Source: Podospora anserina (lineage: Eukaryota). Taken from it: a stretch of DNA of 64,000 nt. A program made the translations under genes and the position numbers. The DNA lies in NCBI GenBank assembly GCA_017654855.1, contig CM030334.1, positions 1,178,001-1,242,000 on the forward strand, written 5' to 3'. This document shows positions 1 through 23,641 of this stretch, in pieces; positions within the stretch are counted from its first letter, which is position 1, and every line of letters begins with the position of its first letter. The notes under the pieces were generated by a model. That model did no database searches and had not been told where the DNA came from. It saw only the letters and a list, made by a program, of their open reading frames with translations.

Positions 1-1346
1 CCTCCTGCATGGACATGTTGGCATAGGCTGAGCCGTGCATGCCGAGCATGTGGAGGGACTTCTCATCAAGCTCGTCGAAGGCACCGAGACCGTGAAGGGT
101 CGTCGTCACGGGGATGGACGCCTTGTTCGCAAGCTCTCTGAGCAGCTCAACACCACGCTCCGAGCTAATGACACCTTGGCCAGCGTAGATGACAGGCTTC
201 TTGGCGATGTTGACCAAGTGAGCCACACGCTTGATAGAAGCACGGAGCTGCTTCTCGCTGGCCTCGAGAGCGGCGCGGGAGGCAGCGCTGGGGAGCGACG
301 GAATGGCGGGGGCCGTGGGAATAGCACGACGCAGAATACCAGCCGTCACGTCCTTGGGAAGATCCACGAGAACGGGACCAGGCCTTCCGCTGGTGGCAAT
401 CTCGAAGGCCTCGTTGATTCTTTGAGGCAGCTCAGCGACATTCTTCACCATGACGTTCCACTTGGTGCAGGCGCGGGAGATGCCCACAACGTCGGCTTCT
501 TGGAACGCATCGCTACCAATGGCTGTGGTAACGACCTGGCCGGTGAAAACGATCATGGGAGTACCGTCCGCAAGCGCATCAGCCATTGGTGTCACAACGT
601 TGGTGGCACCAGGACCGGAAGTCACCAAGACGACACCGGGCTTGCCAGAAGCGCGGGCGTAACCCTGGGCCATGTGGCCAGCGCCCTGCTCGTGTCTGGG
701 AAGGACAAAATCGAAATGTGGCGAGTTGTAGATGGCATCGAACACGGGAAGAATAGCACCGCCAGGGTAGCCGACTGTGTATAGTTAGCCAACTGTGCAA
801 GTTTATGGGAGTAGGAGTAGAGACATACAAATGTGCTTGACGCCGTGTCTGAGCATCATCTCATGGAAGATCTCACCACCAGTCTTGCCGATAAACCTGT
901 AGCGCATTTCGTGTTAACTATGCATACATATATATATATACATAGACGATCCTCATTTGTATAGTTGGGAGACATACGACTCGTCGACATCGTTCTTACG
1001 GGCGTTAGCCAGAGGTTGAACGTGATTGGGCTCGGCGTTGAATGATTGGGCGGGCTTTGCTCGTACGTCGCTGTATATAGGATGGAATTAGCCATTGTGT
1101 TTTTGTAGTGATGGTAGTGGTGAGTCACTACTAGTAGTAGTATGACTCCAAAGCCGACGATGGCGGTGGGACGACTTACGCAGCGGGCACCTTCGCGGCA
1201 GCCGATGTGGACTGATTCCTAACGTCTGATGGCCCATTACGGACACCTGTGATGGCAGAAGCCTTTTGTGTGAGGGAAGCAATTCGCTGTTGGCTAGGCC
1301 GAGTAGTGGCCAGCGCCTTGAGGGCGCGGCTGGTTTGACGGATCAT
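1..1346 (-). CDS. ILV2: Acetolactate synthase catalytic subunit, mitochondrial (5' part; 3' end outside window; 3 introns visible)
   Basis: Manual splicing gives MIRQTSRALKALATTRP (presequence-like), then [81 protein letters not shown], the TPP-enzyme N-terminal signature. GT-AG introns at about 1071-1179, 897-977 and 775-828. Confidence 0.96.
1121..1148. promoter_or_regulatory. Putative Gcn4/CPC-1 elements in ILV2 intron 1
   Basis: Perfect TGAGTCA at 1121-1127 and TGACTC at 1143-1148. Confidence 0.5.
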
Positions 1347-2981
1347 CACGAGAAGGTGACTGCGAAGAGACCGGAAGGAGAGCAGACGGCGGAGAGCGGG
1401 AGGTGGCGAGCTGTAAACTAGGAGAGCACACCTAGGTGAGAGGGACCTGAAGGTTATAGGAGTGGAAATAGGAAAGTTTTAGCTGTAACAGCGAGAACTG
1501 GCTATTAAACAGCAATGTAGAAAGATTCCAAAGTTCCTCTTGACGAGCCGAGGAGTCAATGGGTCTTGTTGGAGGCGGACGTGGTGGTTTTGAAAGAAAG
1601 AAACCCTGTCCTTGGCGGGAACGAGCAATCGGAGTGGTATGAGTCGTTGAATCTCAAATTTTTGGCCGTCGATTGTGGGGTAGAAAAGTGACTACACGGG
1701 TGGCACGGGCCTTATAGTGGCCCCTAGTGGCGATGTCGGAACTGCCCTGGAGCGCCCGATTTGCTGCCACGGCAAGCACACATGGCCACCGGCAGGCGGG
1801 ACGGCGCCTGGACCCTTTCACCTGCTTTTTAGAATAAGTTTCTAACCCGCCTAGAGGGTAGCCGTTGTTTCTTCTTTTGCCCTCGGCACCTTCCTGGAAC
1901 ATCATATCACGTTTCGAAACTTTCTTCTATGACAGTTCAGGCATCACACGACCAATTCATCCATCGTCTGGGAACACTGGACCATGACACCGTGGATCTT
2001 GGTGGCCGAGGAATTCAAGTTTTTGCGGGGAAGAAAGCTGCGTGCCGGTCTGCAGGTCCGTCCAATCACACGCTGTCAATTAAGTGTTCTCCCGTAAGTA
2101 ACACACCCAGCGCGACATTGTAGCACATAACGGCAAGCCGATGAGCCGATCCTTCTCTCGATATCCTCGGGATACGATATTGTTAAATTGTGCGATCACG
2201 GCCATATTCTTTGAGATCTCTGCAAGAAGCGGGCGAAGAGGGCGACCGGCCCAACGGACATTCTAATACTAGGTACCTGACATCCGGCTCACGGATGACG
2301 CCAAGGCGGGGCGGGGTCCATTCCAGGTGTCAAAAGTCACAGCCGTCACAGCCCTGCGCCGGTGGTCGGCCCCACCAAAATATTTCCAGCCGGGTATTCC
2401 AGCTTCACGCCGACAGTCGCAGCGGCCGGCCGCCTCTGACTTCACTGATCGAGCTTCGAATTAGGTTCGGCGCTACCCTGTGGCTTGTCAACACCTCCAA
2501 CTTCGGGCAAGAGCAGCATCCCGCCTTGTTTTCTAGCACTCAGCCCGCGGACACTATGCGATGATCAACTGACGACTGCAGATGCCATCCGACTGCTCAC
2601 TGCAACGCTACGGGACAGAACTGCAGCAGCAGAATGAACGGAGACAGTTTCCCGAGCTGGCCCTTCCACGTGCACCAAACCACAGCTGCCATCGGATTTG
2701 GAGTGAGAATGCTGTCTCTAGCATCAATTTGGATGCTACGCTGAGTGGATATCATCTTGGCAAGAAATCACGCTAACCTCCAGTCTGCTAACAGTTCCCA
2801 GACACGATCTTCTCGCTGTGTAAGTCACATTTCCTATTTCGCTCTCAGGCTCTCAGTTATTCCCGCCTGCCGATATTTTACACATTACAAACAGACAAAC
2901 AAACCAAAAATTGAGTCAACGTACAAGGAGATAAACAAGAGAAAATTACAAGTCACTAATCATCACTCATACTACGTGGCT

Positions 2982-5848
2982 TTAGCCACCCAAGACTCCG
3001 CCCAAAAGACCACCCTTCTTCTTCTTACCCGACTTGAGACTGTCACTGAAGGATCCAAGACCCAATCCGGCAAGGACGCGGTTCAAGCCGAGTGTACCTA
3101 GCAACCCGTCAACCAGTCCTCCCAATCCAAGGCCGCTCAGCTATAGTACTAGTGTTAGCACGTTGTTCCTTGCGTTGCAAGTGGACCCTGAAAGGACTTA
3201 CCAATCTGCCAACGAGGTTGAGCACACCACTCAATAACAACCCAACGGCGGCAAGGATCTGGAACAGAGGCTCGTTGAGCAAACCCCACAGAGGGTTGAG
3301 CTCCTTCTTTGCGTGGGGCATATCCTCAAGCTTGCGCTTGGCATTGTCGATGCACTGAGTGACATCGCCAGTGAGATCCTTGAGGAGCTCAGCAAGACGG
3401 TACTCCTCCGGAGTGGCCTCGCGAGCAGCAGTCTTGTGCTTGGCGTTGGCCGAGATGCGGCCATCAGGGTCGAGGCCCTTGATGATGCCTTGAGCCTCGG
3501 TCAAGATGCGGCCACCCTCTTCGATTAGAGGGCGGACCTCCTTGACAAGCTGCTCTTCGTCGCGCTCGTCTTCTGGAGTGCGCTCTGCCTTGTCGATTTT
3601 CTACTGTGTGTTAGTGATGAACAAGCTGTGGCGTGAGTTGGTAGTGATAACTTACCTCGGTGATCATCTTGCAGATAGGTCGAATCTTGTCAAGGCACTG
3701 GGCAATGCAGACAGACATCTGGATGGCCATCTTCTTGTCATTCTCGGCTTGCTCGCGCTTCTCCTTCTGTTCAGGTGTCTCCTCGTCCTTGACCTCAGGA
3801 ATGCCCTCAAGAAGCGAGCAGTGGCCAATGACAGTGCCCTTCTGGTCGACAACATCACCGTCGTCGTCAATCTCCTTGCCCGAGCAGACCTGAGGATCGC
3901 CAGAAGTCAACTTGCCAATGAGGTTACCATCACCATCAACAACATTGCCCTCCTTGTTGACCTTGCGGCCCGACATGGGGTTCTTGGACTTCTGAACCTC
4001 CTCGGGCTCCCAGCGCTCAGCCTTGCCAATGACATTGCCATTCTTATCCAACACATCACCATCCTCATCAACCGCCCTGCCAAACAAGACCTTGCCCTCT
4101 CCCTTCACCAATCTCCCCACGATATCCCCCGAAGGCGTAACAACAGTCCCATCCTTAGCAACCGTGCACCCCTCCAACTCGGCAAACGGCCCCTCCTTGG
4201 ATCCCTCCCTCTCCCCCTCACTAACCAACTCCGCCTTCCCCAAAACATCACCACTCTCACTCAGAATATTCCCCTTCCTATCACACATCCTCCCCACCAT
4301 CCTCTTCGGATCCCCCTCCACCACCCTCCCGTAAATAACCCCGTTCCCATCAACCACATACCCCGCCTTGTTGACCCTCTTCCCAGCCAACAAGCTATTA
4401 TCCACCTCCTTAACCTCCTCCTCCACCTCCTCCTCCGGCTCCCAACGTTCCGCCTTCCCAATCACATTCCCCGCCTTGTCAAGCACATCCCCATCAGCAT
4501 CAACAGACTTCCCCCTCAACTGCTTGACATCCCCTTCGATAATCTTGCCCACCCACTCCCCATTGCTGACAACCATCCCATTCCCGTCAACAACCGCGTC
4601 AGGGAAGGACTCGAACGGCGCAGACTCCTTGAGCATGTCATCACGTTCCGAGTCAGAGATGGGCTCAGCCTTGCCGATGATCTTGCCGTTGTCGGACCAG
4701 ATATCCCCGTTTTCGTCGACCTTCTTGCCGATGAGGTACTGTAGGATGCCGCTCACGACACGACCGACAACCTTGCCGTCGGAAACGACGTTGCCGCCTT
4801 TGTTGACGGTGCCGTTCTTGAGAATGGAAAAGTCCATTTGTTCGGCTACGGTGGAGCCCTCGCCTGCTTCGACGCCTTGGGGTTGGTCCTCTTGGATTGT
4901 ACCTTCGGGTTGACCTTCGGCTTGGGATGGGGAGAAGTCCTGGACCTGTGACTGGCCGTCTTGGATTTGGTGGGGGTCGAATTGCTCTTGTGCTTGCTCA
5001 CCAGCTTCAGTTTGGGGTTGCTGCTGCTCCGTGCCGGTGGTGGAGGGGGTTTTCTCTGTTTGCTGCTCAACATCGGGCTTCTCGGACCCTGACTTGGCGA
5101 CAGACTCGGCCTTGTCGCTGACGGTCTTGGTGTCAATGTCTGGCTTCTCAGAAGCAGCAGGCTCAGGCTCGTCGATGTTGTTATCCGCAGCCTCAACGTC
5201 TGGCTTCTCCGAGGCAGCCTTGTCGACTGTCTCCGAGGCAGGAGGCTTCTCCGATGTGGTGGTAGCATCCTCCTTTGCACTCTTGAGGAACTCCTCCCTC
5301 GCCTCATCAGTAGGCTGGTTCTCGCTCGCCTGGTCAAAAGCCTTCTTAGCCTGCTCCGTCAACCCCGACGGCGCCTCAGAGATCTTATCCGCGGCGGGGG
5401 TCTGGGTCTCTTCCTCAGCCTTGTCAGACTCTGGCTTCTCAGACGACTCGACCTTCTCCTCCGTCGTAGTCTTAGTATCCTCCCCAGCCTCAGTCTCCGT
5501 CTTGTCACTCATAGCCTTGGGCTCAACCTTCTCCGGCTTCTCCTCCTCCTTATCCTCCATCTGAATCCCCTCCTCTGTTTCCTTGGGCTTCTCCAGATGA
5601 GTATACCCTCCACTCTCCCTCTCCACCTCACTGCCATCATTCCCCTCGAAATCCCCCGACGTGGTCACAACCTCGTCGTTCTCCTCCTCCTCCTCCCGAT
5701 TCTTGTTCTGCTCCTTCTGGAGATCAATAGCCGGAGGGGAGGGGGCAGAGCGAGGGACGTTTTCCTCTTGGGGGGTGGAGACCTCCTGCTGCTGCTGCTG
5801 CTTCTTTCCCTTGCGGGAGGGGAGCGTCTTCTTCGCAATGTCGGACAT
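2982..5848 (-). CDS. Large repeat protein of the DUF3659/'LEA-domain' type: acidic disordered N-terminus, five ~60-65 aa repeats, helical C-terminal domain, Gly/Leu-rich tail (cluster gene A)
   Basis: ATG at 5848 (MSDIAKK). Repeats such as GKRVNKAGYVVDGNGVIYGRVVEG...GRAVDEDGDVLDKNGNVIGKAERWEPEE. Introns at about 3601-3655 and 3141-3201. Last exon LSGLGLGGLVDGLLGTLGLNRVLAGLGLG...GGLLGGVLGG*. Family name is from recall. Confidence 0.88.
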
Positions 5849-7453
5849 ATTGTCTTGTGGTGCGGTTGTAAAGGTGCCTTCCGTGGTGGGGGTTGTGGTA
5901 GGGGAAGCGGGACGTAAGGGAAGGGATAGGTTGAAGAAGAGTTCCAGGATGGCACAAGATAGGGACGGAGGTGAGATGATGGTGTGACTGTATAGGTAGG
6001 GTCTGTGGTGGAAAAAAAAAAGCAAGCAAGGTGAGTTACGGTGTGCTAAAGCTGTACAGTGACAACAAAATGATGTAGATGTGTGGCTGTGCTCAAAGGT
6101 TCAAGAGATTACCGTAGATAGCTATATAGATTTTTCGTTGGTCCAGAAGGAAAAAAGAATCAGACAAGAACACAGCACTAGCCTCAACCTTTTTATGTCG
6201 TCAGCATCTTGCTACCTCAACCACTATTTTCACCCGTCGTCGTCAGACGATAACTTCGAGACAAGCCGGCTTTTTCGAGAAGCTCAGAATATCTCCCCGG
6301 ACGTCATCATCGTCTCTTCTTTACGTCACGAAACCTAGGGGACTTCTCCTGCATTCACAAACTCCCACTCGCGCGCAAGAAGCAAACTGACAACCCCCCT
6401 TTTCCTTGTCCCCCAACACCCCCCAACACCTGCCGTCCCACCCACCTACCTATGCCCCCCGGGATGACTTCATCCCCCTCACCTCCCCGCCCTCCCAGAG
6501 GCCAACACCTCCAAAAGCTGCGCGTCATACCAGCCACACATCCCAAAATCCTGCCTGTGGCACTAAGTCTGCGTAACAAATCGACAGATCGGTGGCTTGC
6601 TTCAAACCTGTCGGAGGTAAAGTGTGGCGAGTGCCCTCCATCATTGGGCGGGGAAATCTTGATCAGGAAGGTGGGCTTGTCATTGGGATTGGACAATGAA
6701 CAAGCGAAACCGTTGAACTGGTGGGAAAAAAACTCAAGATTGGACAGCAATGTGTCAAGAAAGTTGGATGTTGTGTGTCACAGACACTCACAGTGTGCGT
6801 GTAAGAGGTGTGGCTGGATCAAAGAGTGGCTTGCCGTGTTTACGAAGCGGCAAGTAGCGTCAACTGTGGCGAGGGAGATACGCGGGCTGAGGTAAAGGAG
6901 TGGCCGTAGTGGCTGGTGTGTATTTTTCTCTGCCCACCCCCCTTGCTACATGGATATGGATCCTAGTGCAGTTGGGTGGTGAGTGGTGAATAACATGTGG
7001 GACTGACTGGCCAGGGCCAGCTACTCAGTTTCCTTCTAGGGCTGGCCTCCCGAAAAGCTGGGGGTGTGTGGGATGAAGCGAAAAACGTTGGATGTTCCGT
7101 TTGGCATCCCGGAACCGGACTGGAAACTTGCCGGGGTTCGAGATCTTCGCGTCCCCTCTTCTCACTCAGAAACCGAATTTTAGGGCCTCAGCTTCCTTCT
7201 CACCCCTCTCCCACGTGCATAACGGCTCACTAGCTGCTTGTCATGGAACTTTCTGAAAGAAAATTACTTGATACCTTCGCTATTGTGTGACGAGCTCGCT
7301 TTCTTTCCGGACCCTTCCCGCGGGTCTTGCAATCGCATAACCAAACATAAGTTTGGCACCATAACCCCGGAATTCGATTCCCATCATTCCTTTCATTACA
7401 TCATCCCAAGTGCATATACCAACGCCTCTGACGGCAAGACTGATCCCGATCCA

Positions 7454-8527
7454 TCAAGAAAACGAGATGTTAGGCTTGATCTGCTGACTACCAAACACGG
7501 TAGGAATCCGAATGGTAAGTTGAATCCCTTCCTTTGTTGACTTCACGTCCAGGAAGATATCGGACGGGCTGTCACTGGGGTTCTCCTTTCTCCAAGATTC
7601 CGCGTTCTGTCTTCTCTCTTCCTCCGTTCGTCTGGGTTGTCTCGGCTGGTCCGGCTCCTGCTCCTGCTCTTTTGCCTGAGACTGCTTCTGCTGCTCTCTC
7701 TTGGGAGATTTTGGCGGCGGTGACGGATGCTCTTCTTGCTCGTCTGCCACGCCATCCTCCTGACCTCCCTCTTTGTCTTCCTTCTCAGACTTTTTCCCCT
7801 GCTTCTTTTTCCTCACTGATGACGGCCCAGCCTCTGCTTGCTGCTGAATGCGCTCTCGAAGTTCCTGTTGCTCTTTCTCCTTGCGGTGAAGCGGGTTGTT
7901 GTTGTCAAGGAACTTCCCCACGACATTCCCAGACGCATCCAGAATATTGCCCAGGTGGTCAACCATCAAGGAAGCATTGGCCTTTCGCATCATGTCCAGT
8001 AAGCTGCGAGGTTGGGACTCGGTCCGTGGTGAATGTGGGCTCGTGCTGGGTTTCCTTTCGATCTCAATGTCGGCGACATAACCCAAAAGTTCCCCGTTGT
8101 CTCCCAGTATGTCGCCGTCCCTGTTGGAGACTTTGCGCCCAATAATCTCGGGGAGGTCACCGCCGGCACGGGCGAGCACCTGCCCCGTCTGATCGTCTAC
8201 AATGTCCCCATACTCATCAACTGTCTTGCCCATCAAAATAGACCCCACATAAGGCGGCAATTTTGGTCGCTCAGGTGATAAGGAGATTCCAGGGGAAACC
8301 TCGGGAATGCTGCCAATCTTGGGAATAGGGGCAACATATGCTGGGCTCCTACTTTTCGTTCTGTCTGGGGGATCCCTTTTTTCCTGTGTCTCTGGCTCCG
8401 GCTGGTCGGTAATGTCCTCAACTTCGATGTCGCTCTCGTCTTCATGCCCAACCTCCACAATGTCATCCTGTGACTGCCGGCGAGACCTTGGCAGTTGAGA
8501 TGCCTGAGTGAATTGTTTGGATGTCAT
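7454..8527 (-). CDS. Smaller DUF3659-type repeat protein with C-terminal DIFLDVKSTKEGIQLTIRIPTVF motif (cluster gene B)
   Basis: Single open frame from MTSKQF. Contains GKTVDEYGDIVDDQTGQVLARAGG...GRKVSNRDGDILGDNGELLG and VDHLGNILDASGNVVGKF, the same repeat as gene A. Confidence 0.85.
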   Translation of the reverse strand: MTSKQFTQASQLPRSRRQSQDDIVEVGHEDESDIEVEDITDQPEPETQEKRDPPDRTKSRSPAYVAPIPKIGSIPEVSPGISLSPERPKLPPYVGSILMGKTVDEYGDIVDDQTGQVLARAGGDLPEIIGRKVSNRDGDILGDNGELLGYVADIEIERKPSTSPHSPRTESQPRSLLDMMRKANASLMVDHLGNILDASGNVVGKFLDNNNPLHRKEKEQQELRERIQQQAEAGPSSVRKKKQGKKSEKEDKEGGQEDGVADEQEEHPSPPPKSPKREQQKQSQAKEQEQEPDQPRQPRRTEEERRQNAESWRKENPSDSPSDIFLDVKSTKEGIQLTIRIPTVFGSQQIKPNISFS

Positions 8528-10428
8528 GATTCTTGTAGTGGTGATCAACCTAGGTGGAATCTGCAGTGTTGGGAGTTGCTAGTATCCGATCGGACTCCAG
8601 TCCCCGCAGAGAAATGCAAAGGGTCTTGGGGCTGAAAGCCTGAAACACCAGTTTAGGCCGGTTCCAGAGCATTCGACTGGTCGACGTGCGTGAAGGCTGT
8701 TGGGTGTGTGTTGAGGGCGTGAAGTAGGAAAGGAGGGGGTGAGTGACGTCATCGGACCAGGGTTAAATCTTGTGAGCTTCGAGGCTGCAAGGTCTCGACT
8801 CAACCCTGGCAGAGTCGAGACCAACATGGAGCTGGGTTGGGTAACACGAGTGAGAAGACGGTGTTAGCCGATTGCACCTCTGCGCTTGCTAAGCTTATTA
8901 GGATAGCCTATGCAAATCGTCAGGTTGGCAGTCAAATTGCGAGTCTTTGCCCAAGACAAAGCAGAACATTGAGCTGGGCTTTTGATGTCCAGTGAGGTGG
9001 TTTTTTGTGCTGGGATGTGGCTGCATATCGGGGGCTTGGCATTGTCCCGAGGATCAGTTAGCGAACCGTTGAGATCAGTGCTGATGAAAGCGTTGAACTG
9101 CCTGGTTAGCTTCGGACCAGAATATCTCAAGCCCTGTCACTGGACGGATCAGAATTCTAGTGTTCTTCGAAATCGAGCGAGACTTGAGACATTCGAGCAG
9201 AACAATAGACGGGCCGAGCTGAAACATCATCAACGGACTGGAGAACTGCAGCCGCCATACGATTCGTCGGCCGGTGCTTGTTGAAAACCGGTTTCTGCAC
9301 CACTGCCTGCTCTGAAGCAAGCGAGGCAAGGCATGGAAGCGAGGTCAACAAGGTGCTGGCTCCTTTGGCATGCAGCTTTATGCGTCGTTAGCGGTTGATA
9401 AATCGTGGTTTTCCTGGAGATCATGAACGGATAACCAGCATATATCGGTCTTAGCCATGTCGAACCCCGTATGATGCTACAATGGCATCACGGCCAAGGC
9501 CGAGTCGGGCCGCCTGGGAGGTGACTCGAGATCTCGGAAGGCCAGCAAGTCTGACGGCTGCGCCGTGGTAGAGTTGCAGTCGTTCCTGGTGCCGGCATAA
9601 CAACGATGTTATTGCTGAGGATGACCTGTGCCGCATGGAGTTGTAACAACAGGCCATTACACGGAGGACATTATATGTCTGAGTCGAACCTCAGTCCGTC
9701 CATATATCGTAGAAGCGGTATGATAGGTAACTCGGGGAAAATGCAGAAGTGGCCGTCGTGCGTCATGACCTTGAGCGATCCCGAAACGCGCCACCGAGGT
9801 ACAGCAGCTGCATGCTAAGGTAGGTGGTCGAAGATCCGACGGCAGGCCGTTGTCAGGCAATTGTTCTTCATTGGAATTCCGATTCCTCATTGTCCGGACG
9901 TTGTAAAATGGCCTCACCAGATATCATGATTGTCATCAACAAAAGAAAATCTCGAGGTTGTTTTACAGCAGAGGTGCAATTTGTGACGCAGCGGTTGATG
10001 CACTGTAAATTGTTTTCTCCCAGGTTCCTGGCATGCCGCTGCATGACAGCTGCGAGCGCCCGCTGGAAAAGCACGGGTCAACTGTGGCACAGTGGAACCT
10101 GCCCGCTGAAATCGATCCGGGCCCCTGTGTAACGTGCCATTAAGCACTGGCCATGCTATCGGCGCCATACTAGGCAAAAGCTTCGCCAAACTTCACACAG
10201 AGACAAAATACAGCAAAATAGAACAACAACCACAGTGTCCCGAACCATATCTAATACAATTATTAGGATAAAGATAGTATACAAAAGACCAAAGACCAGA
10301 AAAAACCCATCATTAACAAAACAACTACTCCATTCGCCGCCCGACATCAGATACCCTCACCCAGCCCTGAAATGCACACGAGATGAGAAAAAGCTCACGA
10401 GAGCTTGGAACCGGAAAGTTTAGTTGCT

Positions 10429-11184
10429 TCAGTTCCTAAGGAATTAGCCCCATGTCTCTGTCTTGCAGTTGACGTGTAACAGTGTGCTATCAAGCGGAGG
10501 CGCATCATCCACCATCATGGTCATCTCATCGAGCATCTGTCTAGGCAAACAGCCTGCTGATCGTCCTCCACATGGGAGGGCGTGTCTTGCTTATGTCTCT
10601 CTACATGGACCTTTAGCCTTAGGTAAGAAACATGACGGAAAGAGAGATGAAGTAAACAAGAAGGCGATACATCCGACCCTCGAAGCTAACCAAATCGCAG
10701 TCGCCGTGGTTGTCGCATGCGCCGTTCACTTGATCAGGGGGAGGGAAGGAGAGGGGAAGGGGAAGGGGTAAGAATAGGGATGGGTAAAATGAAGATAAAA
10801 GAAAAGGGTAACTTACAAGAGAGCAAGCTCAAGATCGCCATGGATCTTTGCCTTGAGAGTAATCTCAATGTCGAGGTTGAGGTCAAGACGAAGCCTCAAA
10901 GTGTCGCTCTTGCCGCCGCCACCACCGCCTTGTTGGTTGACGGCGCCGCCAGCTACACCACCTAGCACACCGGTTGCGCCGTTGACAAGGCCGCCTGCTG
11001 TTTGTCCGACGCTGTCGAGGGCAAGGCTGTCAAGGGGACCACCGCCGCCCTGCTGTTGTTGGCGCTTTCCGCGTCTCCGTGGGGGAGGAGCATAGTCCTC
11101 AGACTCCTCACCCTCAGACTCGTAGACCTGGGGCTTTGGCTGGCGCTTGGGCTTCTTGGTCTCTGAGCCGCTTCGGGAAGACAT
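10429..11184 (-). CDS. Small low-complexity protein ending in LRLRLDLNLDIEITLKAKIHGDLELALL (cluster gene C)
   Basis: ATG at 11184 (MSSRSGSETKKP). GTAAGT donor inside the last Leu codon (10816). Candidate branch/acceptor GCTAATTCCTTAG ends at 10436, giving ...ALLN*. The unspliced form stops at 10813. Confidence 0.85.
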
Positions 11185-11942
11185 TGTGGGTGTTTGTTGT
11201 GGTGGGAGTAGCCGTGAGGTGTTGTGGGAAGAGATGGGTTCAGGGTCTTGCTGATCAGGTTGCTTTCTAGAGAAGTTGAATGATGAGATGCATCTTAAGG
11301 GTCCTAGGGACTCCGAGATGGGCACTTATAAACGGCAGACATCTCCAGAACCCTTTGTGTCCAAAACAGGATTCTATCGGACGGATGAGCAATGAAGTCA
11401 TCGGCCTCGACAGGAGGAGCCCTCATTCTGACGAGTCCAGCAGAAAATCTCCGACACCAGGCCCTACACCAGGCCCTACATCACAGCCGCTACAGCACAC
11501 CACGGCTAGCCGACGGCCTTACACCATAAGGGTACAGTAGTCACTCAGCACAAAGTATGACTGTCTCTGTCCAATGATCACGGGGGGTAGCACCATGCTC
11601 GTGTTCTAGGCAAGCGAGGATGGATCAACACAAAATGGGGGTGTGTTAATCTAGCCCCTGTTTAGCTGCATAAAGAGAAAAGCTCACTAAAATTACAGCG
11701 CCGAGAACGCCAACCGCCCCCTGATGCACTGTGCAGCACTCAACACCCGAGGCCAATGACACCCCAAGGGACACCCCCCCAGGGCACATCATCCCGGCCC
11801 ACATGAAACATGCATTCACACCTCACCCACAAACACCATCATCCAACAAGACAAGTCCAGCTTCACATGATCCTCCCCCCGCGATCGCTCATGTCAACGT
11901 CACTCTCACGCACACACCCCCTCCCCATCCTCCACGTTTCGC

Positions 11943-12722
11943 CTACCCATTCGCGCCCTTGACATAGCGGCTCTCCATTCCCAACTGCAGCTGCCGGCGA
12001 AGCAACACAGGGACCCACTGGCGCGAACGGTGTCTGTTCAACACGCCCCCTTCCGGCCATAGCTCCTCTTTGTCCCCCTCCGTTTCGCTCTCATCCTCAC
12101 TCTCACCCTCGTCCTCGCTTTCACTCACATCCTCCGAAAAACACCCATCGCGATCAAAAGCGATGGCCCATTTCTTGTTTTCCATCTGAACCGCCACAAA
12201 GCGGGCCGCGTCACCTTGCAGCGTCAGCCACTTCTCATCACTGGTCCAGAACCATGGCCCGATGGTGTGTCCCAGCGTAGCCTGCCGCCCTCCGTGGCGC
12301 ACCAAGTTGGTGTCTTTATCGACATAGATCCAGTTCAGCATGGGCGGGTCGTCGGCGATGGTGCTCACCATGCCCAAGTGCTGCTCCTCGGACGGGTATG
12401 GGAAGTAGTACCCAAAGAACTTGTGGCCAGGCACAGGAAAGGACGGGTGGTCGATCCACAACTGCCAAAGAGAATGTCAGCCGAACGGAGTTTCTTCCGG
12501 CTTGTTGATGTCATCTGGGTTTTCCCAAACAAGACTCACCATGCCGTTCTTCAAAACGCACCAACACTCGACCGGGCCATCCTCGTCGAGAGAAACGGTG
12601 ACCGTCATACGGAACTTGGCCTTCTCTTTTGCCGCTTCATTGGCCTTCTTCTGTGCGCTCAGGGCTTCGCAGACCCCTATCGTCGTGGGAATCCCCGCTA
12701 TGACAAGCAAGCCCACGACCAT
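11943..12722 (-). CDS. Conserved-looking fungal protein with N-terminal hydrophobic helix and PPMLNWIYVDKDT domain (cluster gene D)
   Basis: Exon 1 MVVGLLVIAGIPTTIGVCEALSAQKK...KNGM. Intron at about 12462-12539 (GTGAGT..CTGAC..CAG). Exon 2 LWIDHPSFPVPGHKFFGYYFPYP...GMVSTIADDPPMLNWIYVDKDT. Confidence 0.87.
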
Positions 12723-13507
12723 CGTCTCGGTAGTCGATATTCGTCGTATTGGGTGCTTAGGAGGAGGGTAGCAATGGCGCCAGAGTATCCGAGTCTGTGT
12801 GATGTCGTCTGGTGTGATTCAGTCTCATTCAAACAACATCTCATACTCGTCAGCTTCATCTTCACGGTGGAAGGTTGAACACAGCTTCGTCATATAGTTC
12901 CAAGACCCTACCACCCACCGTCTCTCCGGCCGGCCGTTAGTACGGACGAGGCTGTTCTTGCGTTCACCCCCCTCCTCTCTCCTCTTCTTGGCGGGACAAT
13001 GCCATCCTATGCAACCGAAGTTGGCTAATCCCGGTAATCTGAAAAGCTTGTTTCCTCCTCAACCTCCCATTACTGCAGCGGCTAAACAGCTCTCATGCAG
13101 CATTGACGTCACAGGCCTCGAAACGATGCCCTCCAGCTTGCAAGCCATCATGCCTTTTTTTTGCGCACCCAAAGAAACTTGTTCGGCCCACCCCCCTATG
13201 TCGTCACCCGGCACCAGATTCACGAAGCCGTGGTCTGGTGAGAAGCCGAAGAGCCCCAAAATCATGATTTTTGGTCGTTTCCCGAAGCTATGATGCATAA
13301 GGGGTCTCACTGGACCCTTGGTCGATCCTTGGAACGGCCTTGGTTCAAAGAATCTCTTTAAACCTCATCACCACTAGGCACCACAAGTGATACCTACTCT
13401 TCCCGTCCAAACTTTGCAGCTAGCTTTTTGTTTTGTCCCAGCGTGATCCCAGCATCTATCTCCACCAGAAGCAACACATTGACCTAAAAGAAAACCAGCC
13501 TGTCGCC

Positions 13508-14797
13508 ATGTCGTCGGTAAGTTCTTTCTCTGTTCACTCACCATGCCATCTCAGAGAATGAAGAATCGTAACAAGAAAAAGCAGACTCCAAAGCCCAACG
13601 AGGAGTTCCCCAAGAAAGAGGATGAGACCAAGACCGGGCAGCCCGAGGCTAGCAACCTGCCTCAGACCTCCACAGTTGGTGACAACAAGCCCGAGGACAA
13701 CAAGCCCACGGAAGCTGGCCGTGCTGAGACCGACAAGCAACCTGGAGACAAGCCCCTCGACAATGAAGACTACGACGAGGAGAACCCAGATGAGGAGAAC
13801 GCGGGAGTTCTAGGTGACGACTACCAAGAAGACGAGGACCAGGAAGGCGAAGAGCCATACGACGAGGAGGGAGAAGAGGAAGAGGAGCAGGCTTACGACG
13901 ACGAAGAGCAAGATGATGAGGACGCTGCCTCTGAAGAAGACGAGGAAGAAGAAGAGGAGGAAGTCATCCCTCCACCCCAACCACAGCGACAAAAGAGCAA
14001 CACCACCAAGAAGGGCAAGCCCGCCTCCGTCGTCGACGACCGCAGCAGCACACCCTCTTCCTCCCAGCCTCCCACCCCCAAGGACGATGAGAAGCCCCAG
14101 CCTAAGTGGATGCGCGACCAAAAGAAGAAGAAGCAACGACAGACCGAGTCTGATGTCGACAACAGACAGGTCGACCGCCCTCGCCGCAGGGGGAAGAACG
14201 AGCCATCTTACCGTGAGCAGCAACAGGCGCTGTACCGTCAGCAGCAGCAGCAGCAAATGATGATGCAGCAGCAGCAGCAGCAGCAGGGCGGTGGTGATGG
14301 TGGCGGCAAGAACCCATTGAGGCTCAGACTAGACCTCAATCTGGAGATTGAGATTGAGCTCAAGGCGCATATCCATGGTGATTTGACGCTTGCTTTGCTG
14401 TATGTTTACCTTTCTTTTCATCTTTTCTACCCTTCTTCTTTTGTGGCTTCCCCTGATTCATGGTCCTGGCTTTGTGTCATCATCGCGCATTGGCTTAGTG
14501 GCTTCCACGTGAGCGATACCATGCCGACCAACTCTTTTAACACTTTCTCTCTTCTACTATCACGGATGAACAAGGCAATGAAGGCTCATACACACCGATT
14601 TTCTCGGGGATTTTGTCACAGCAATTAGGGCTATTCAGTTTCACGTCATCAAGAGAAAAGAGAGCAAGATCGGCTAACCACGACGGCGCGTTGTTATCAC
14701 TACAGGGACGGATAAATTGCACTTTTCTTCTTTCCATGATCAGGCGTTGGGAGGTGCAATACCTATGTTGTCAAGGGCTGATGTAATATGCAGATGA
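13508..14797 (+). CDS. Acidic/poly-Q disordered protein ending in LRLRLDLNLEIEIELKAHIHGDLTLALL, paralog of gene C (cluster gene E)
   Basis: Micro-exon ATGTCGTCG followed by GTAAGT at 13508-13516. Main exon runs to 14399. GTATGT donor at 14400 inside the last Leu codon. Candidate acceptor GCTGAT..TGCAG ends at 14793, then A TGA. Confidence 0.83.
14219..14286 (+). repeat. CAG-rich microsatellite encoding poly-Gln in gene E
   Basis: Runs of CAG encoding QQQALYRQQQQQQMMMQQQQQQQ. Confidence 0.8.
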
Positions 14798-15866
14798 TGG
14801 GGGTAGAAAAGGAGATGTCTTGAGTTTTGTCTACCGAGGTCCAGACCTAGCGTTTCCTTTGTCTTATCTTGTGTGGCTTTAAACTGTATTGTAATTTTGT
14901 GTTAGTATGTACTCTATTTATGTTGTAATATGTCTTGCGCTCTATCTGTCCACAGCTCTGTGGTTGTTATTTTTGTCCTACAAGGGGGGTGGGTTGGTGA
15001 AGAGTAGGTAGCCATAGAGCTGCTGAAGGTAGAGTGGTCGTCGGCAACCCGCATCAAGCTATGGCCACCGCTACCGAGCGTTTGGGTGTCTTTGTTCCTC
15101 GATCAGCGGGAGGTTAGACAAACAAAGATGGTTTAATATCCAGTAGATTGCCGAACCCCAGTTGTTCCGGGTTGTCGGGTCCAGTGCCAAGTCGCGAACA
15201 TTGACAAGGGAAGGAAGTCGATGATGACTTTGTGTAACGCTGCCATCAAACGTGCAACTATATCGAACTGCGTATATTGTAGACGTAAACCATGAGAATA
15301 CCCATTGTCAGCAGGCAAAATCTCCACTCGTGTCTGCTTGGTGCATATGAGGTGTCATGGTTGCCGGCTGCCTTCTTTGCAGCGCGCGCTGCTGCAGTGG
15401 AATGGAGATGAAGGCCTTTCGGCGCTCCGCAGCCTTGGGATGGTGATAGCTTCACTCCGCTTCCAAGGCCGGCTCTCTTTTGCTCGAATTCGTCTGATCA
15501 GTAGGTCGAGTTGCTGTTTCCCGTTTGACACTAAAACTGCCGTATCTAACACCTGGCGCAGTCTCAGTGCACACTGGCCAGCACGTTCCGTCATCTTCAT
15601 CGGATTGCATTCTCTTCTCATACCTGAAGGACACGGTGGTGTCCCATTTCTGCGCGTGACATTTGCCAACGTGGCCAAGAGGCCACCCCTTTTGGTTGAG
15701 CTTCGCCGTGCCAGTTTTTCCCTGCTGCAACAGAGCTGCCACGGGTATCTCGATTCTCGAGCCACTTCGCGCTTCTTCCGCTCCGACCTTCTCACTGCAC
15801 GCTCACGAAGAGCTCTACCACTCGCTGCCAATTTGACGTTCCCGATTCCCTCATACTCTTGCAACA

Positions 15867-16410
15867 ATGCCCACCTCTCCGCAGGCCGATAGCACCGAGC
15901 CCGAGACCACTGCGATCACCGACCCGACCGAGCCACCAAGCTGCATTGCCTGCGAAAGCACCACGAGGAGAGTATGGACTTGCATCCAGTGCGGTTTCAA
16001 CTTCTGCGATGATTGCTGGGGAAAAGAACGTCCTCACAAGCCCCGCGTCATGGGCACCGGCGGCCGTCCCCACGAAAAGGTCAATCTTGGGTGTGGCCAA
16101 GCGCCTCGAATATATCTTCCGCAACAAGGAGGTTGAGGACCTAGACGGAGAGTTTGCCATAGATGCGAAGAACAAGTGGTTCGGCATAGATCAGGGTAGC
16201 GATGGGTTGACGTTCAACTACACAGATCGCTTGACCGACCTCAGCATACTGGAGAGTAACGACCACAATGCCGCTGATCGCTTCCCACATCTGGTTTTAT
16301 TTGTTGGCAAGATCGGTACGTCCTCATTATCAAAGACAGTATGGATCGAGATACCTACTGATACTTGATCCTAAATACCCATCTAGGCGCGGTTAAAACT
16401 GCTTGTGAAG
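15867..16410 (+). pseudogene. Truncated, frameshifted 5' fragment of a Zn-ribbon/P-loop/patatin-family gene (paralog of 24614-29060)
   Basis: CIACESTTRRVWTCIQCGFNFCDDCWGKERPH...RPHEKVN, frameshift near 16091, then KRLEYIF...KWFGID...DRFPHLVLFVGKIG. Homology stops at the P-loop, just after the intron at about 16316-16386. Confidence 0.8.
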
Positions 16411-16592
16411 GGTGTGGGCTAGACAGACAGTTTGATGGTATATTTGCGTGGGAGAGCCTTTGGTTGCCAGTACCTTGATGTAAATGTGCTAGATTTCCTG
16501 GATAGCAGGAGGCCAGATACATAATTTAAAGTTTCTTACCTGAGTCTTATGTTAAATCCAGGTACATGAACACCCTAGGATCACTTGCACTT

Positions 16593-16840
16593 ATTTTATC
16601 CCAGCTAGACAACGACTTTATCCGAGCTAACTATCGATCCTGTCCCCAGCTAGCCAGCGACTTTATCCCAGCTAGCCAGCGACTTTATCCCAGCTAGCCA
16701 GCGACTTTATCCTAGCTAACCACTAAATTAGATAACAATGCCGTAAGTTATGATCAAGCGATTTACATGTTGGGATGGAATTATCTAAACGTTGGGATAA
16801 ATGGTGTCTTGAGCCGGGACGAAGGCCAGGGGACGAGAAA
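16593..16840. repeat. 22-bp tandem array followed by degenerate inverted copies (foldback/MITE-like relic)
   Basis: About 6 copies of GACTTTATCCCAGCTAGCCAGC at about 16593-16722. Reverse-oriented cores GGGATGGA, GGGATAAA, GGGACGAA and GGGACGAG follow at about 16771-16837. Confidence 0.7.
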
Positions 16841-17532
16841 TTGACATAACGGGCACTGAGCAGATATGAAACATAGGTATGTAGGTACCAGGTATGAGTT
16901 GCAAGCCACTGACTACCTAATTCCTATCTTCATTATCCATGCATTTGATTCCCAGTAAGTGTGATTGATACCAATGTCAAAACCACCGGATAGATCTCAT
17001 CATTTAATGGTTCAACAATTTGAACTTTTCCCTCTCAGATGAACTCCGCCTGGCTTGATCACTGTTTCGAGTCCGGCAACATTGCTCCTACAGTTTTCCA
17101 CACTATATTTGCTACCTTAGCTCAGCCTGTTCATGAATGGCTGTCGGTGCTTCCTGCTGTCTCTTGACCCCATTCCAAAGATTCATTTCATGGAGCGTTT
17201 TACCAAGGTCACGTTATGCCTTGCAACATGACTGATGCTCAATATCTCCCTGGTGGAGGAGATGAACAAGGTCAGCGCCGATAGTGAATCTTGAGGTTTT
17301 GGGGTACTTGGTCCTGTCCGCTTTGGGTTGCTGAGGGGTTTGGTGTATGGAAAGATGCTGGTTGGACTGGCTGAGGAGCATGGTGATGGGTGGGGTGGCT
17401 TGGCAGAGGTTGGTCTCGGATCCATTCTTTTGTGGGTTCAGGTAGGTAGCTACCAGGTAGCTAGTCAACGTCCACATGAAGTTGTAGGTGGCCTCGACAG
17501 CTCAGCGGCCCATCGAAACTCACACACCCATC

Positions 17533-19406
17533 TCAAAAATGCTTAACGTACTTCTCCAACGGTTCTATCACAGAGATCAACACCTCTTGAACGAACTCGG
17601 CTTTCCCCAGGTCTGGTGTGTCGACAAAGTTGACACCGACACACCTCGCAATGACATCCGCCAGCTCCGGCCCATGTGTCATTTCCACCTCCTCCTGCCA
17701 CTCCTGCGCCGCCCGCCAATGTGTCCAATCATTCGCCGACCCATCGGAGTTACAGTGAGCTTTGTAGTAGGGTTGGTCTTCGATGCGTTCCTGAAAGAGG
17801 AGCTGGAGGAGAGTCGTTCCAAGTGTGAAAATAGTCATCTGTGCGTGTTCTCTGGCGTTGGACACTTGTCGCTCCAGTGCCGAGCGGATAGAAGTGTGGT
17901 TGAAGTAAACCTTGGGGGGTGTATTTCTGACAACCTGGACATCGCGATCATCCCAGGCTTGGGGGATCCAGGCGGATGTTCCCAGTCCGAGAATGGTGTA
18001 GGCAAGCTTGATGCCTATGCGAATACGCTCGCTGAGAAGAAGGGAGGCTGGCTTGCGAAAGTCCACTAGTGTTTGTATACTTGACTTTAACGAGGACTCT
18101 GTCTCACTTGGATGTTGTCGTTTAGCACTTAGAGTGATTGTGTTGTCCTCATAGTGAATGGTGTCTCCATGTTGCTCCAGCACAGATATGGGATTTTTCA
18201 GGAGGTTGCAACCAACTCGGAGCTTCTTTGGGACAGGCGATGCTGCCTCAGGAAGTTTGGGTACTGCATGGCGTTGTGCCGAATCTGGTTTTGCGAGCTT
18301 TGCCGTTTTCCTAGGCATCCAGATGGGGTCTATGATGGATTGACGTGGATTTACCGCGGTTTGGAAGCTCGAGAGTGCGAGCACCGTGGAATTCTGCTGT
18401 TTCCCTGCCTTGACATGCATCTCGAACCCGGCATCCAGCCGTATGCGAGCGGTTAGGTCTGCCACCTGATCGAACAAGGGCTCAGCATTGCCGCTCCCGT
18501 CACAGGTAGAGTCCACTCCAGCAGAGACTTCGACGCCTACTTCCACAGGCATGTTTGGTGGCTCATTTGAACCCAGAAACAGGTTGATAGCCCCCCTTCC
18601 TGGCTGTTTTGCGTGGTGATCAAACCAGACCGTAGCTATCCCACACGGATGAAGAGTTTGACACCTGCAAAGCCAACTTTCAGGTCGAAAAGCCCTGTAG
18701 AGCTGAGCCGTCTTAGACTGCATGTCAAGATAAGGAGCCGTGGCAGCTAGGCATGCTTTCCACTCCTCCTTGCCCATGATAGCTGGTGCAAGCAATGTGG
18801 CTTGCGCTATACGAAGGTCCGCCTCGAGAAATCGGCTGATTTGTGTGTTTATCGTGGTTACTTCTTTCATCAGATCCCGCTTTTTTGTGAAGCTAACAGC
18901 CAGTCTCAGAATTGCAAAATCAACAGTCCCCGAACGTGGGATGTGAATCTAGAGGTGAACATTGTGTCAGAATCCATCATGGTCCTCGCTGAACGTGACC
19001 ATTCCTAACGTACCTTTCCGTCTTGTATGGGCATCAACAGAGTACAAATCTCTTCCAGAATTTGGTTCAGACGGCGAAGCTTTTCCATGAACCACACCAA
19101 CTTTTCTCTGCCAAGTCGAGCCTTCAGCATCGATCGGAGCTTTGAATCGTGCCATCCTCTCGAATGCGCGTTGTTCAAGAGGTCTGACTCTGTGGCGGCA
19201 TCCAAGGCCAAAGGTCGTAAGAGAAGTTCCACGTTCTGTCGAAATGCAATGAGTTCATCTTCGACGGCAGAAATAAAGTCGGGGAATTGTGATGAAAACT
19301 TCCACCAGAACTTTGTCATCTGAAGATAACCCCGCACTAGCTTCCCACCGTCGATGATGAGTGGAAAAGTGCCGAGGACGACACCGGCCACTTCGAGGCC
19401 AGACAT
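17533..19406 (-). CDS. Protein with HeLo-like N-terminal helical domain and degenerate kinase-like C-terminal domain (DUF7580-type)
   Basis: Starts MSGLEVAGVVLGTFPLII, typical of fungal N-terminal cell-death-like helical domains. Intron at about 18949-19012. C-terminus ERIRIGIKLAYTILGL..AWIPQAW..IFTLGTTLLQL..ADVIARCV resembles a kinase C-lobe without HRD/DFG. Domain names are from recall. Confidence 0.75.
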
Positions 19407-19698
19407 GTGGATTAAGGTTGATGGGCTCCGATACCTTGACGAAATTATAAAGGCGAATTTCAAGTTCCCCCCGGATACCTCCCAGACTTTCTTCTGTCAA
19501 TCTTCGACGACAGCTTTATTGTGGAGGGGTGCGTTCCGGTCATGCACGTCGGTGCAAATACTACCCGCCCCAATCGAAGAGGGGTAAGCGTCAGCACCTT
19601 GCGGGGGCTTGCCGATGTCGAAGGTCATCTTCACCAGTGTTTCATATCATCTGTGTCGATTTTCAACTCTGTTAAAGTACCGAAGAAGCCCCTCGAAC

Positions 19699-22088: not shown

Positions 22089-22367
22089 AATATTGGAGCT
22101 AGACAGCGTACTATACGATGCCCATCATACTCAGCTCAAGGGCTGCGGAAGCTGGGTTACCGAACTGCAAACCCAGGATGCCACTACTATAGCTCCAATA
22201 ATAATCAAGTTCAGTCAAGCTGGTGTATCTCAGTAAATACTACGTCTCTATCCGGGTCTCGGTGAGATTATGTCCTCGTACATATTTTCAACCATGAAGC
22301 CGCCGGGGCCGGAAATATTGGCCATCAGCCCCAACTTTAATAGCAACACATTCTTACCCAAGCTATC

Positions 22368-22486
22368 ACATACGACCATAGACAGCTGAAAATACGGCAT
22401 CCCGTCCGCTCTGCCCGAGTCAAACAGCTGATCGCCGGACTAGTACTCAGGTGGGTGACCACTGGGGAATCCCTGGTGTTGTATGT
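22368..22486 (+). rRNA. Dispersed 5S rRNA gene
   Basis: ACATACGACCATA...CCCGTCCGCTCTGCCC...TAGTACTCAGGTGGGTGACCACTGGGGAATCCCTGGTGTTGTATGT, 119 nt with complementary ends. TTTT terminator follows. TATA-like TTTAATAG about 30 bp upstream. Confidence 0.95.
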
Positions 22487-23043
22487 TTTGGTGAATTTTT
22501 GGCTCCACTCAATGCCCCTTTTAACCCCTTCTAATCCCTGCTCTTGGTCTTCGCGGAGCCGACAGATACCATCCACCAACAGCTCCCCATCTTTGATCTG
22601 AACATTTCCAGTTACCTTCACAGCCCCCAGAATTATCGCGGCAACGGAAGTCCTGACCGACATTTCAAGATAGTTGAAACTCGCTAACGTTAATGAGAAT
22701 CATTGCAGATGTGGGTATGTTGTTGGTTGCTAGTTGCACAACCAACCCATCATCACACCCCTGTTCCAAGGTTACATAGGAGCTGACTATTGCTACAGAA
22801 ATCATCATATGTCCTAATATGGAAATGTTCGTGACTAGGCTTTGTGTAATGCATTGATATTCAACAACCAACAACCACATCGCCCTAACCAGACCTCGCA
22901 ACCCTTGTATCTTGCCCCCGTGTTGTTGCCGGTGTATGGAATCCTCTGTATAAGATCCCGAAAAGACGCCTTTCAAACCCAATTCTTTGAACTCTTCATC
23001 AGCTGATCAGACCTTTATTTCTGTACTATCTTGAAACCTCAAC

Positions 23044-23641
23044 ATGGGCCAATGCCAATCCATCAACGCCCAACCTGGCGAAGGCTGCTTGTACGTCTAC
23101 CACTTTCAACTGGATTCCCCTCTTTGACATCAATTCGCCTCACTAAACCTCTCCCACAAAGTGAACTAGCCCAACGTTGCCGCATCTCGCAATACGACTT
23201 TGACCGCTTCAACCCCAACGTCTGTAGGAACATCTACGTCGGCATGCGCATGTGCTGCACCCAACCCGTCTGCTGCCTCTCCCCACCATCGAGTCGCCGG
23301 CGGACGGTACCCCCACCGCCAACCATCGAGCTATCGCCCCCGCCCCCCGCTGGTGGGTCGTGCGAGACTTACACCGTGAAGGGCGGGGACACCTGTGAGG
23401 ATATCGCTTCTGCTTTTGGGGTCTCGGAGGATGGGCTTGATAGGATTAATGTCTTTACTTCTGGTTGGGGAGGGTGTTCTGCTCTTGTGGACGGGACGGT
23501 GATTTGTGAGTGTCTGGTTCTCTTTTGTGGTTTCTATGGCGGCTGTAAGTACCTATTCAGTGCGGATTTGCTAACATGGCTTTTCTGTCAGGCGTTAAGG
23601 AGTCTGTACCGGATGACGAGTCGGAGTTGAGGAAGTTGTAA
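23044..23641 (+). CDS. Small two-LysM-domain protein with Pro-rich linker, no evident signal peptide
   Basis: MGQCQSINAQPGEGCF/ELAQRCRISQYDFDRFNPNVC...CC, then CETYTVKGGDTCEDIASAFGVSEDGLDRIN..GWGGC..GTVIC/VKESVPDDESELRKL*. Introns at 23091-23161 and about 23506-23591. Confidence 0.82.

Follow-up and report, generated by a model that had tools for sequence, protein, structure and literature searches.

We analysed a stretch of 64,000 nt of Podospora anserina DNA (contig CM030334.1, positions 1,178,001 to 1,242,000; here 'the window'), in which five adjacent genes, named A to E, occupy positions 2982 to about 14715, four on the minus strand and E on the plus strand. The original prediction, made from the letters of the sequence, had described these genes as a non-enzymatic cluster linked by shared modules. 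As an observation the cluster is partly confirmed: it stands with two corrections, one to a likeness drawn between A and C and one to the end of E. The block is part of a Podospora-type genome, is transcribed and corresponds, by locus numbering, to Pa_3_3210 to about Pa_3_3250. The C protein is identical to PODANS_3_3230; D has 98% identity to QC762_303240 and falls into the same 90% cluster as PODANS_3_3240. The part of A exon 1 that was used as a query (residues 341-731) has 99% identity to QC764_303210, a protein of 916 aa, and, from the common numbering of Podospora locus tags, we infer that A is Pa_3_3210. A Pfam scan of A–E at E up to 0.01, with a local copy that may lack newer models, gave only DUF3659 and DUF6987 in A and DUF3659 in B, with none in C, D or E, in agreement with the predicted absence of any catalytic motif.

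Gene models were checked against spliced contigs from four runs of four studies (X1, X2, X5 and X10 are among the run names). These runs, whose conditions are coded, were taken as RNA because their contigs lack introns. Contigs lie over all five genes in all four runs; contig depth is unusable for ranking the genes. Gene A (5848..3656, 3600..3202 and 3140..2982, minus strand) has three exons coding for 916 aa, and both of its introns, 3601-3655 and 3141-3201, are spliced out in three of the four runs (X1, X2 and X10). Gene B (8527..7454, minus strand) codes for 357 aa and has no intron. Gene C (11184..10817 joined to 10600..10591, minus strand) codes for 125 aa with the C-terminal end LALLET; the joint 10600/10817 across its terminal intron (10601-10816) is present in every run, and so is the removal of the single intron, 12462-12539, of gene D (12722..12540 joined to 12461..11943, minus strand; 233 aa). 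Gene E (plus strand) starts at 13508 with a first exon of only 9 bases (13508..13516), continues in 13585..14399 and ends in either 14622..14628 or 14706..14715, yielding 276 or 277 aa. Its 5′ intron (13517-13584) and both 3′ joints from position 14399 are seen in all four runs, acceptor 14622 leading to the ending LALLN and acceptor 14706 to LALLDG. The end of E had earlier been placed at 14797, with a guessed acceptor near 14793; none of the four runs uses it, and the true end is 14628 or 14715.

The contigs also contain several features beyond the coding exons. RNA contigs on B extend in three runs over about 6518-8986, i.e. ∼2.4 kb versus 1.07 kb of coding sequence, which implies untranslated regions of roughly 0.9 kb (3′) and 0.4 kb (5′); one 4-kb contig of X1 covers 5981 to 10017. 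Single contigs of X1 and X2 (12540-14229) run from the first exon of D through the whole D–E intergenic region into E, with the introns of both genes removed, and thus the divergent 5′ leaders of D and E appear to overlap or abut. At the other border of the block, a plus-strand GT..AG joint at 2819-2986, supported by contigs of X2 and X5 with a 20-nt anchor, excises 166 nt including the stop codon of A; this joint may come from an antisense or convergent transcript or be an assembly artefact. All four runs differ from the window in an identical manner at 7565, 7785, 12129 and 14139 (three substitutions and a 3-nt insertion), which indicates that the strain or sibling species of the runs is not that of the window. 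The insertion, located behind 12129, adds one Glu to the acidic loop of D.

Protein A is built of a disordered N-terminal arm, an array of repeats and a helical C-terminal part. In the AlphaFold2 (AF2) model of P0269, a protein 99% identical to A, residues 1-336 are disordered, residues 340-680 form beta-hairpin modules with a predicted local distance difference test (pLDDT) score of about 90, and residues 692-850 form long helices (pLDDT 82-96) followed by a tail of low confidence. The modelled hairpins correspond to five DUF3659 repeats (residues 341-690; 3779..4828, minus strand), which match PF12396 in five stretches with E 1.2e-106 and 349 bits, above the gathering score of 24.8 bits. The C-terminal part (residues about 679-916; 2982..3814, minus strand) comprises the long helices of DUF6987, a hydrophobic helix and a tail rich in Gly and Leu that closes with a run of Lys. 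Its match to DUF6987 (PF22485) has E 1.2e-67, with 228.1 bits in exon 2 over profile positions 38-172 (gathering score 26 bits) and 30 bits at the end of exon 1 over positions 2-38. The hydrophobic helix, residues 843-861, has a Kyte-Doolittle value of 2.18, the highest among the five proteins, and the Gly/Leu tail behind it is conserved out to a chytrid. Protein B carries one DUF3659 repeat (residues 96-155, E 4.1e-15, 55.8 bits, likewise above the gathering score) and a C-terminal motif, SPSDIFLDVKST.EGIQLTIRIPTVF, that is invariant in all nine aligned orthologues. The repeat that A and B had been said to have in common is indeed present in both, except that its first spelling, G-x-V-D, was one x short; the correct form, G-x-x-[VI]-D-x-x-G-D-[IV], is found at four places in A and one in B, and the six-frame translation of the window contains no other copy.

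The link between C and E resides in their C-terminal ends. The motif of C, DTLRLRLDLNLDIEITLKAKIHGDLELALL (10817..10905, minus strand), is nearly invariant in 27 aligned homologues, and that of E, LRLRLDLNLEIEIELKAHIHGDLTLALL (14317..14399, plus strand), is retained by the E orthologues at 11 loci. Both the common motif and the common intron position noted from the sequence were borne out: 23 of 27 motif residues are identical between the two proteins (E 6e-13) and, in spliced contigs, the donor lies in phase 2 in the last Leu codon of both genes. The tail has 20 residues in strict hydrophobic/polar alternation, followed by G-D-L-x-L-A-L-L, while the rest of C and of E is disordered and of low complexity. 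The profile of this family matches 745 representative proteins at E up to 0.001; among 27 long C-family matches scanned with Pfam, a domain was found in one, a fused gene model. The intron donor occupies the same place in all 10 aligned C orthologues and can be read as LALLYV in 10 of 11 E orthologues; from this conservation across both sets, the terminal intron is older than the C/E duplication. Two other likenesses were considered and ruled out for want of profile similarity, those of the B C-terminal motif to the C/E motif and of the A Gly/Leu tail to the C family. The latter disposes of the Gly/Leu module once proposed for A and C: the hhalign probability is 0.4%, and the likeness is one of composition only.

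The 3′ end of C has further conserved features. Its last exon encodes just one to two residues before the stop codon, and the last 35-40 nt of the terminal intron (10601-10640, minus strand; GTCATGTTTCTTACCTAGGCTAAAGGTCGATGTAG) show conservation far above the rest of the intron, in the same place in nine loci. Downstream, the 3′ untranslated region contains an element of roughly 30 nt, GCTAATTCCTTAGGAACTGAAGCAACTA (also given as GGCTAATTSCTTAGGAACTGAAGCAACTAG; 10421..10448, minus strand), present as one copy in the window. This element is almost invariant in 11 Sordariales-like loci amid otherwise unalignable sequence and is absent from the more distant L029, L026 and L028 of the locus set described below; a search of positions 2000-16000 gave no Rfam match, and no covariation was evident.

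Protein D consists of an N-terminal hydrophobic anchor (12666-12722), a Lys-rich helix, a beta-trefoil with an acidic disordered loop, and conserved C-terminal strands. The hydrophobic segment, already noted at first sight of the sequence, has a Kyte-Doolittle value of 1.92 over residues 1-19 and is conserved in relatives. Precomputed matches to PF28325, named Beta_trefoil_fun in the protein atlas, are found on all 120 listed homologues of D, among them the 98%-identical P0001, and on 100% of the members of the atlas cluster of P0001; D itself had no match to PF28325 in the local Pfam copy. The AF2 model of D has a pLDDT of 75.9, with 86-96 in the trefoil core. In a VIA structure search the best 50 of 48,161 solved chains were all beta-trefoils (Z 7.9-10.0; alignments of 107-141 residues at 4-15% sequence identity), the best match being MoErs1 (7vs2, Z 10.0). 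Foldseek against the PDB gave weak rows only, for D and for A.

To follow the block in other genomes, metagenome contigs were scanned with an alignment of D, yielding 80 loci (L001-L080) with up to 10 kb per side, which were searched with the five proteins. All five genes occur together in five lineages (L009, L010/L011, L014/L015, L021 and L029). Locus L019 has D, C, B and A before the contig ends, i.e. all four genes within reach, and L006, L008 and L013 have E, D, C and B before theirs. Every locus but L029 has the genes in the sequence E (divergent), D, C, B, A. L029 is Xylariales-like (D 78% identical to Whalleya, A 65% to Neoarthrinium) and reads A, B (both reversed), E, D, C, all within 12 kb. 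D adjoins C or E in 25 of the 31 loci L001-L031; the remaining six are contigs of at most 1,913 nt. Records of named species agree with this picture. C and D have locus tags that follow one another in Podospora, Chaetomium olivicolor, two Thermothelomyces species and Niveomyces; in Neurospora hispaniola it is their accessions that are consecutive. In Phyllachora maydis and Colletotrichum a single fused gene model spans D and C, and in Fusarium mundagurra one spans C and B. The named records with D–C or C–B adjacency include Ophiostomatales, Glomerellales, Phyllachorales and Fusarium. A 13.6-kb contig of Trichoglossum hirsutum carries a C-like and an A-like gene at a distance of three tags.

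The loci do not show the wide range first proposed for the block. Co-occurrence of the genes in many Pezizomycotina had been suggested; of the 49 D-like loci L032-L080, eight of which carry about 10 kb on each side, a single one has a C/E-like gene nearby, and A- or B-like genes lie beside the D-like gene in none. In a quick tree of D, which took in part of the loci (a careful search is unfinished), all C/E-linked rows but one belong to a single clade (SH-aLRT 92) together with all 12 named Sordariomycete sequences; of the rows that entered the tree, those of L001-L031 lie inside this Sordariomycete D clade and those of L032-L080 lie outside. The one linked locus among the 49, L079, has a distant D-like gene (3-596, plus strand; 35% identical) tail to tail with an intron-less E-like gene (1289-2308, minus strand) whose 339-aa product ends in LALLEG. 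L079 thus shows the D and E families paired a second time, in a different arrangement.

The neighbourhood of the block changes from lineage to lineage. A gene for a thiamine-pyrophosphate enzyme of acetolactate-synthase-like (ALS) type stands beside A in the window, L010 and L014/L015 and beside E in L006, L008 and L009, while beyond A no ALS gene was found within 2.2 kb in L019 and about 3.5 kb in L021. Locus L009 reads ALS-E-D-C-B-A-SNF2/RING, the block being inverted as a unit; its SNF2/RING gene, directly after the cluster there, lies at 29.9-32.5 kb in the window. In L011, L012, L014 and L015 the ∼8 kb beyond E has no match in the window. Collinearity is thus kept across at least four flank configurations with one exception, L003, and the comparison of flanks implies that rearrangements have hit both borders repeatedly and the interior once, in L029, without scattering the genes. 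The clustering, then, is no accident of one genome: the block is kept in several orders of Sordariomycetes while its flanks change.

Between the block and the SNF2/RING gene, the window carries at about 15000-29900 a series of NLR-like (NOD-like receptor) genes with DUF7580, TPR_10/TPR_12 and a patatin fragment, which match none of the 80 related loci. This segment looks like a lineage-specific insertion.

We then consider the sequences upstream of the genes, for which CRE-like (cyclic-AMP response element) sites had been reported. The sole two exact copies of TGACGTCA in the 64 kb, at 8744 and 13104, both fall in 5′ regions of the cluster; if at most one mismatch is allowed, 14 of 36 matches lie within the cluster, which makes up 18% of the window (binomial P 0.003). 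In an unbiased count of 8-mers across orthologous intergenic regions, words with a TGAC core rank at the top, and in a shuffle control an 8-mer was common to at most five lineages (D–C region) or six lineages (D–E region).

Several of these elements keep their position relative to a gene. Upstream of A there is a module (6299..6473, no strand given) of ATGAAGTCAT at 6464-6473, TGACGTAA at 6321-6328 and, about 20 nt on, ATGACGTC at 6299-6306; the same order holds in the window, L006, L010, L014 and L019, and L021 has all three elements in a different order. Upstream of the B start codon lies ATGACGTCA (8744..8752, minus strand), the single copy of the window, within a stretch covered by RNA contigs; L006, L008, L010 and L019 have it too, 200-500 nt before B, and L013 and L014 have variants of it. 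According to the available text of a published study, ATGACGTCA is the chromatin immunoprecipitation sequencing consensus of Aspergillus nidulans AtfA and fission-yeast Atf1 (PMC12731236). About 210 nt before the C start codon is ATGACTTCAT (11392..11401, minus strand), a decamer with two copies in the 64-kb window, one before C and one before A. Its core 8-mer TGAAGTCA (reverse complement TGACTTCA) precedes C by 185-290 nt in 10 of 12 lineages, and the listed contexts read ATGACTTCAT. The D–E intergenic region (elements at 12886..13207, minus strand) contains TATATGACGAA at 12886-12896 and GTGACGACAT at 13198-13207. Among 11 lineages, TGACGACA (reverse complement TGTCGTCA) is present in nine, read as GGTGACGACA in all but L021, and TATGACGA in seven, read as TATATGACGA in the intergenic copies. 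The conserved CRE-like elements, which precede A, B and C and also lie in the D–E intergenic region, point to co-regulation, as suggested at the outset.

Published knowledge of these genes is scarce. The original prediction knew of no established function, which is nearly right; the exceptions are a lipid-droplet protein, LdrD, and the normal mating of a strain deleted for Pa_3_3210, i.e. for A if the numbering holds. LdrD is a DUF3659 protein of Aspergillus oryzae that, in the available text of a preprint, is found on lipid droplets, is amphipathic in a conserved region near its C terminus and counts among the LDR proteins whose deletion altered droplet number or size; an LdrD paralogue did not localise to droplets (10.1101/2022.11.24.517872). 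Because of that paralogue, droplet localisation is not transferable to A or B. For Pa_3_3210, the available part of a published study gives a level 7.2-fold higher in mat+ than in mat− mycelium (PMC3125171). Our literature search found no mention of DUF3659/PF12396 beyond the LdrD preprint, DUF6987 only in a proteome list, nothing on PF28325, PF22485, Beta_trefoil_fun or IPR022124, nothing on Pa_3_3220 to Pa_3_3250 or NCU07977, and nothing relevant for 12 neighbouring NCU numbers.

How the five products compare with known systems can be stated for each in turn. LdrD and A have in common the DUF3659 domain and paralogues in the same genome; at the C-terminal end, LdrD has a conserved region described as amphipathic helices, and A has predicted helices and a hydrophobic helix. 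Late embryogenesis abundant (LEA) proteins, hydrophilins and the Dpr proteins are, like the products of the block, hydrophilic, largely disordered and repeat-bearing. The LEA label first given to such genes holds in so far as some database sources name relatives of A 'LEA domain-containing', and fails in so far as no LEA or dehydrin profile of Pfam is among the matches of A–E at E up to 0.01. The dehydrin-like DprA and DprB of Aspergillus fumigatus have, in the text available, 23-residue DPR repeats, an association with stress and control of SakA/AtfA type (PMC3103405), whereas the DPR tripeptide does not occur in A–E and the unit of A and B is the 61-position PF12396. D has the fold of beta-trefoil proteins such as ricin-B lectins, Kunitz/mycocypin inhibitors, fascin and IP3-receptor domains, and differs from them in its N-terminal anchor, its acidic loop insertion and its linkage to C/E-type genes. 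The long DUF6987 helices of A with their hydrophobic helix resemble the Habc/SNARE bundle and tail anchor of syntaxins such as Sso2 and syntaxin-1A (Foldseek E 9e-3, TM 0.51-0.58 on the target); this is a weak match of a generic helical-bundle kind, Pfam finds no SNARE family, and membership is not claimed. Finally, the block is similar to secondary-metabolite clusters in its physical linkage, conserved collinearity and common cis elements, and different in that it includes no enzyme, transporter or pathway regulator and in that two of its links, A/B and C/E, are paralogy.

From the sequence comparisons we judge that selection keeps the block together across Sordariomycete orders and that factors of the ATF/CREB basic leucine zipper (bZIP) type probably co-regulate it. 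The best explanation of the data, in our opinion, is therefore a selected and probably co-regulated block whose products would act at one cytosolic membrane or droplet surface. We assign to it a probability of roughly 0.45, and it is offered as tentative. It is preferred to passive synteny because the block behaves as a unit across orders and has conserved CRE-type elements. The clustering interpretation of the original prediction, a co-regulated assembly, is in this way partly supported; as to its dormancy or desiccation role, the Atf1/AtfA-type sites are the only hint, CRE-type elements suggesting induction with stress or resting-state programmes.

The anchors, the folds and the LdrD precedent lead us to propose a joint mechanism. 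On the model of LdrD, protein A may be held at a cytosolic membrane or droplet surface by its C-terminal hydrophobic helix and tail, with the five DUF3659 hairpin modules and the 340-residue acidic disordered arm facing the cytosol. D would be anchored by its N-terminal helix, and its beta-trefoil, predicted to be cytosolic because a Lys-rich stretch follows that helix, would serve as a binding module. C and E, both small and disordered, could be recruited to the surface, the invariant 30-residue beta-type tail being their docking or self-association piece, and B, a soluble one-repeat relative of A, might be a partner recruited there too. An extended form of this proposal is that, in resting or stressed cells of Sordariomycetes, lipid droplets or the adjacent ER bear an undescribed coat made of the five proteins, in which A and D are the anchors, the C/E tails dock on the D trefoil or polymerise, B bridges DUF3659 arrays and an Atf1/AtfA-type switch operates via the TGAC-core elements; we regard this form as doubtful.

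A number of observations weigh against a selected, co-regulated module. As to the elements, the exact CRE at 13104, between D and E, is not conserved in related loci, L009 has none of the three elements of the A module, and several elements are inside RNA-contig-covered stretches and may belong to 5′ leaders rather than promoters. As to the block, L003 has 4.4 kb 3′ of C (L003:10065-14509) without a B homologue or a long reading frame and is the sole lineage without a C–B link within reach. As to the proteins, the N-terminal segment of D could be a signal peptide rather than an anchor. The architecture of A extends to chytrids, far beyond the range of C, D and E, and A can thus work without them. 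A is at most a candidate orthologue of LdrD, and the available text of the LdrD preprint names neither DUF6987 nor conserved neighbouring genes. In the deletion of Pa_3_3210, mating was normal and inhibitor sensitivity unchanged, as far as the available part of that study goes (PMC3125171).

Alternatively, the block may simply have persisted from ancient local duplications (A/B and C/E), in a part of the genome that rearranges slowly, and its genes may have no joint function. Local duplication alone explains two of the links, namely the DUF3659 domain of A and B and the motif and intron of C and E. The ALS-like neighbour is itself kept in several lineages (six loci), and part of the conservation is thus ordinary synteny; indeed, ordinary synteny and old duplications do account for part of it. 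The A family being far wider than the cluster, the lack of B within reach in L003, the silence of the Pa_3_3210 deletion in the assays reported in the available text and the D-like genes of L032-L080, which with one exception have no partner nearby and, where included in the quick tree, lie outside the Sordariomycete clade, all fit such a history. It does not account well for breakpoints that fall at both borders and not inside (whole inversion in L009, unrelated E-side flanks in L011-L015, no ALS beyond A in L019 and L021), for the Xylariales-like L029, reshuffled and yet with its genes within 12 kb, for the distant D-like and E-like pair of L079 in a new orientation, or for the conserved decamer that A and C have in common and that occurs nowhere else in 64 kb. 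We consider passive persistence of this kind possible, on balance unlikely.

Disordered proteins that aggregate at fungal septal pores exist, and the alternating tails of C and E might form beta-sheet polymers in the manner of such proteins, not a membrane coat, with A, B and D as regulators or nucleators. The 20 alternating residues followed by G-D-L-x-L-A-L-L, nearly invariant in 27 homologues and found in a family of 745 matches, and the disordered, low-complexity remainder of C and E would suit this role. Against it, C and E match no Pfam family, including the known families of fungal amyloid or prion motifs (a search with the local copy, which may lack newer models), and the block has no conserved partner of NLR type at its side: none of the related loci has the NLR-like genes that the window carries at 17-28 kb. 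An aggregation module is accordingly improbable in our view.

The least probable alternative is a secreted or lumenal defence module of lectin or inhibitor type, in which residues 1-19 of D are a signal peptide and the trefoil lies outside the cytosol as in ricin-B lectins or mycocypin-type inhibitors. MoErs1 (Z 10.0), a secreted Magnaporthe effector, is indeed among the best fold matches of D, as are lectins and macrocypin/clitocypin inhibitors, and in one source a D homologue is annotated as a fucose-specific lectin. On the other hand, Z values of 8-10 mark only the common beta-trefoil fold. There is no positive charge before the hydrophobic stretch and a Lys-rich helix comes after it, which fits an anchor with a cytosolic domain; the anchor sequence hardly varies, whereas cleaved signals usually do; D has a long acidic disordered loop; and A, B, C and E all lack a hydrophobic segment at the N terminus.

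To our knowledge, filamentous fungi have few conserved clusters of genes outside metabolism. In this one, DUF3659 and DUF6987 stand together with a recently named fungal beta-trefoil family and a Pfam-less family with 745 representative matches, and Podospora and Neurospora are tractable fungi. If the genes of the block act together as a selected and co-regulated module, they would provide a handle on the role of DUF3659 proteins at lipid droplets, on the binding target of the near-invariant LRLRLDLNL tail and on structural genes under the Atf1/AtfA regulator of stress and dormancy.

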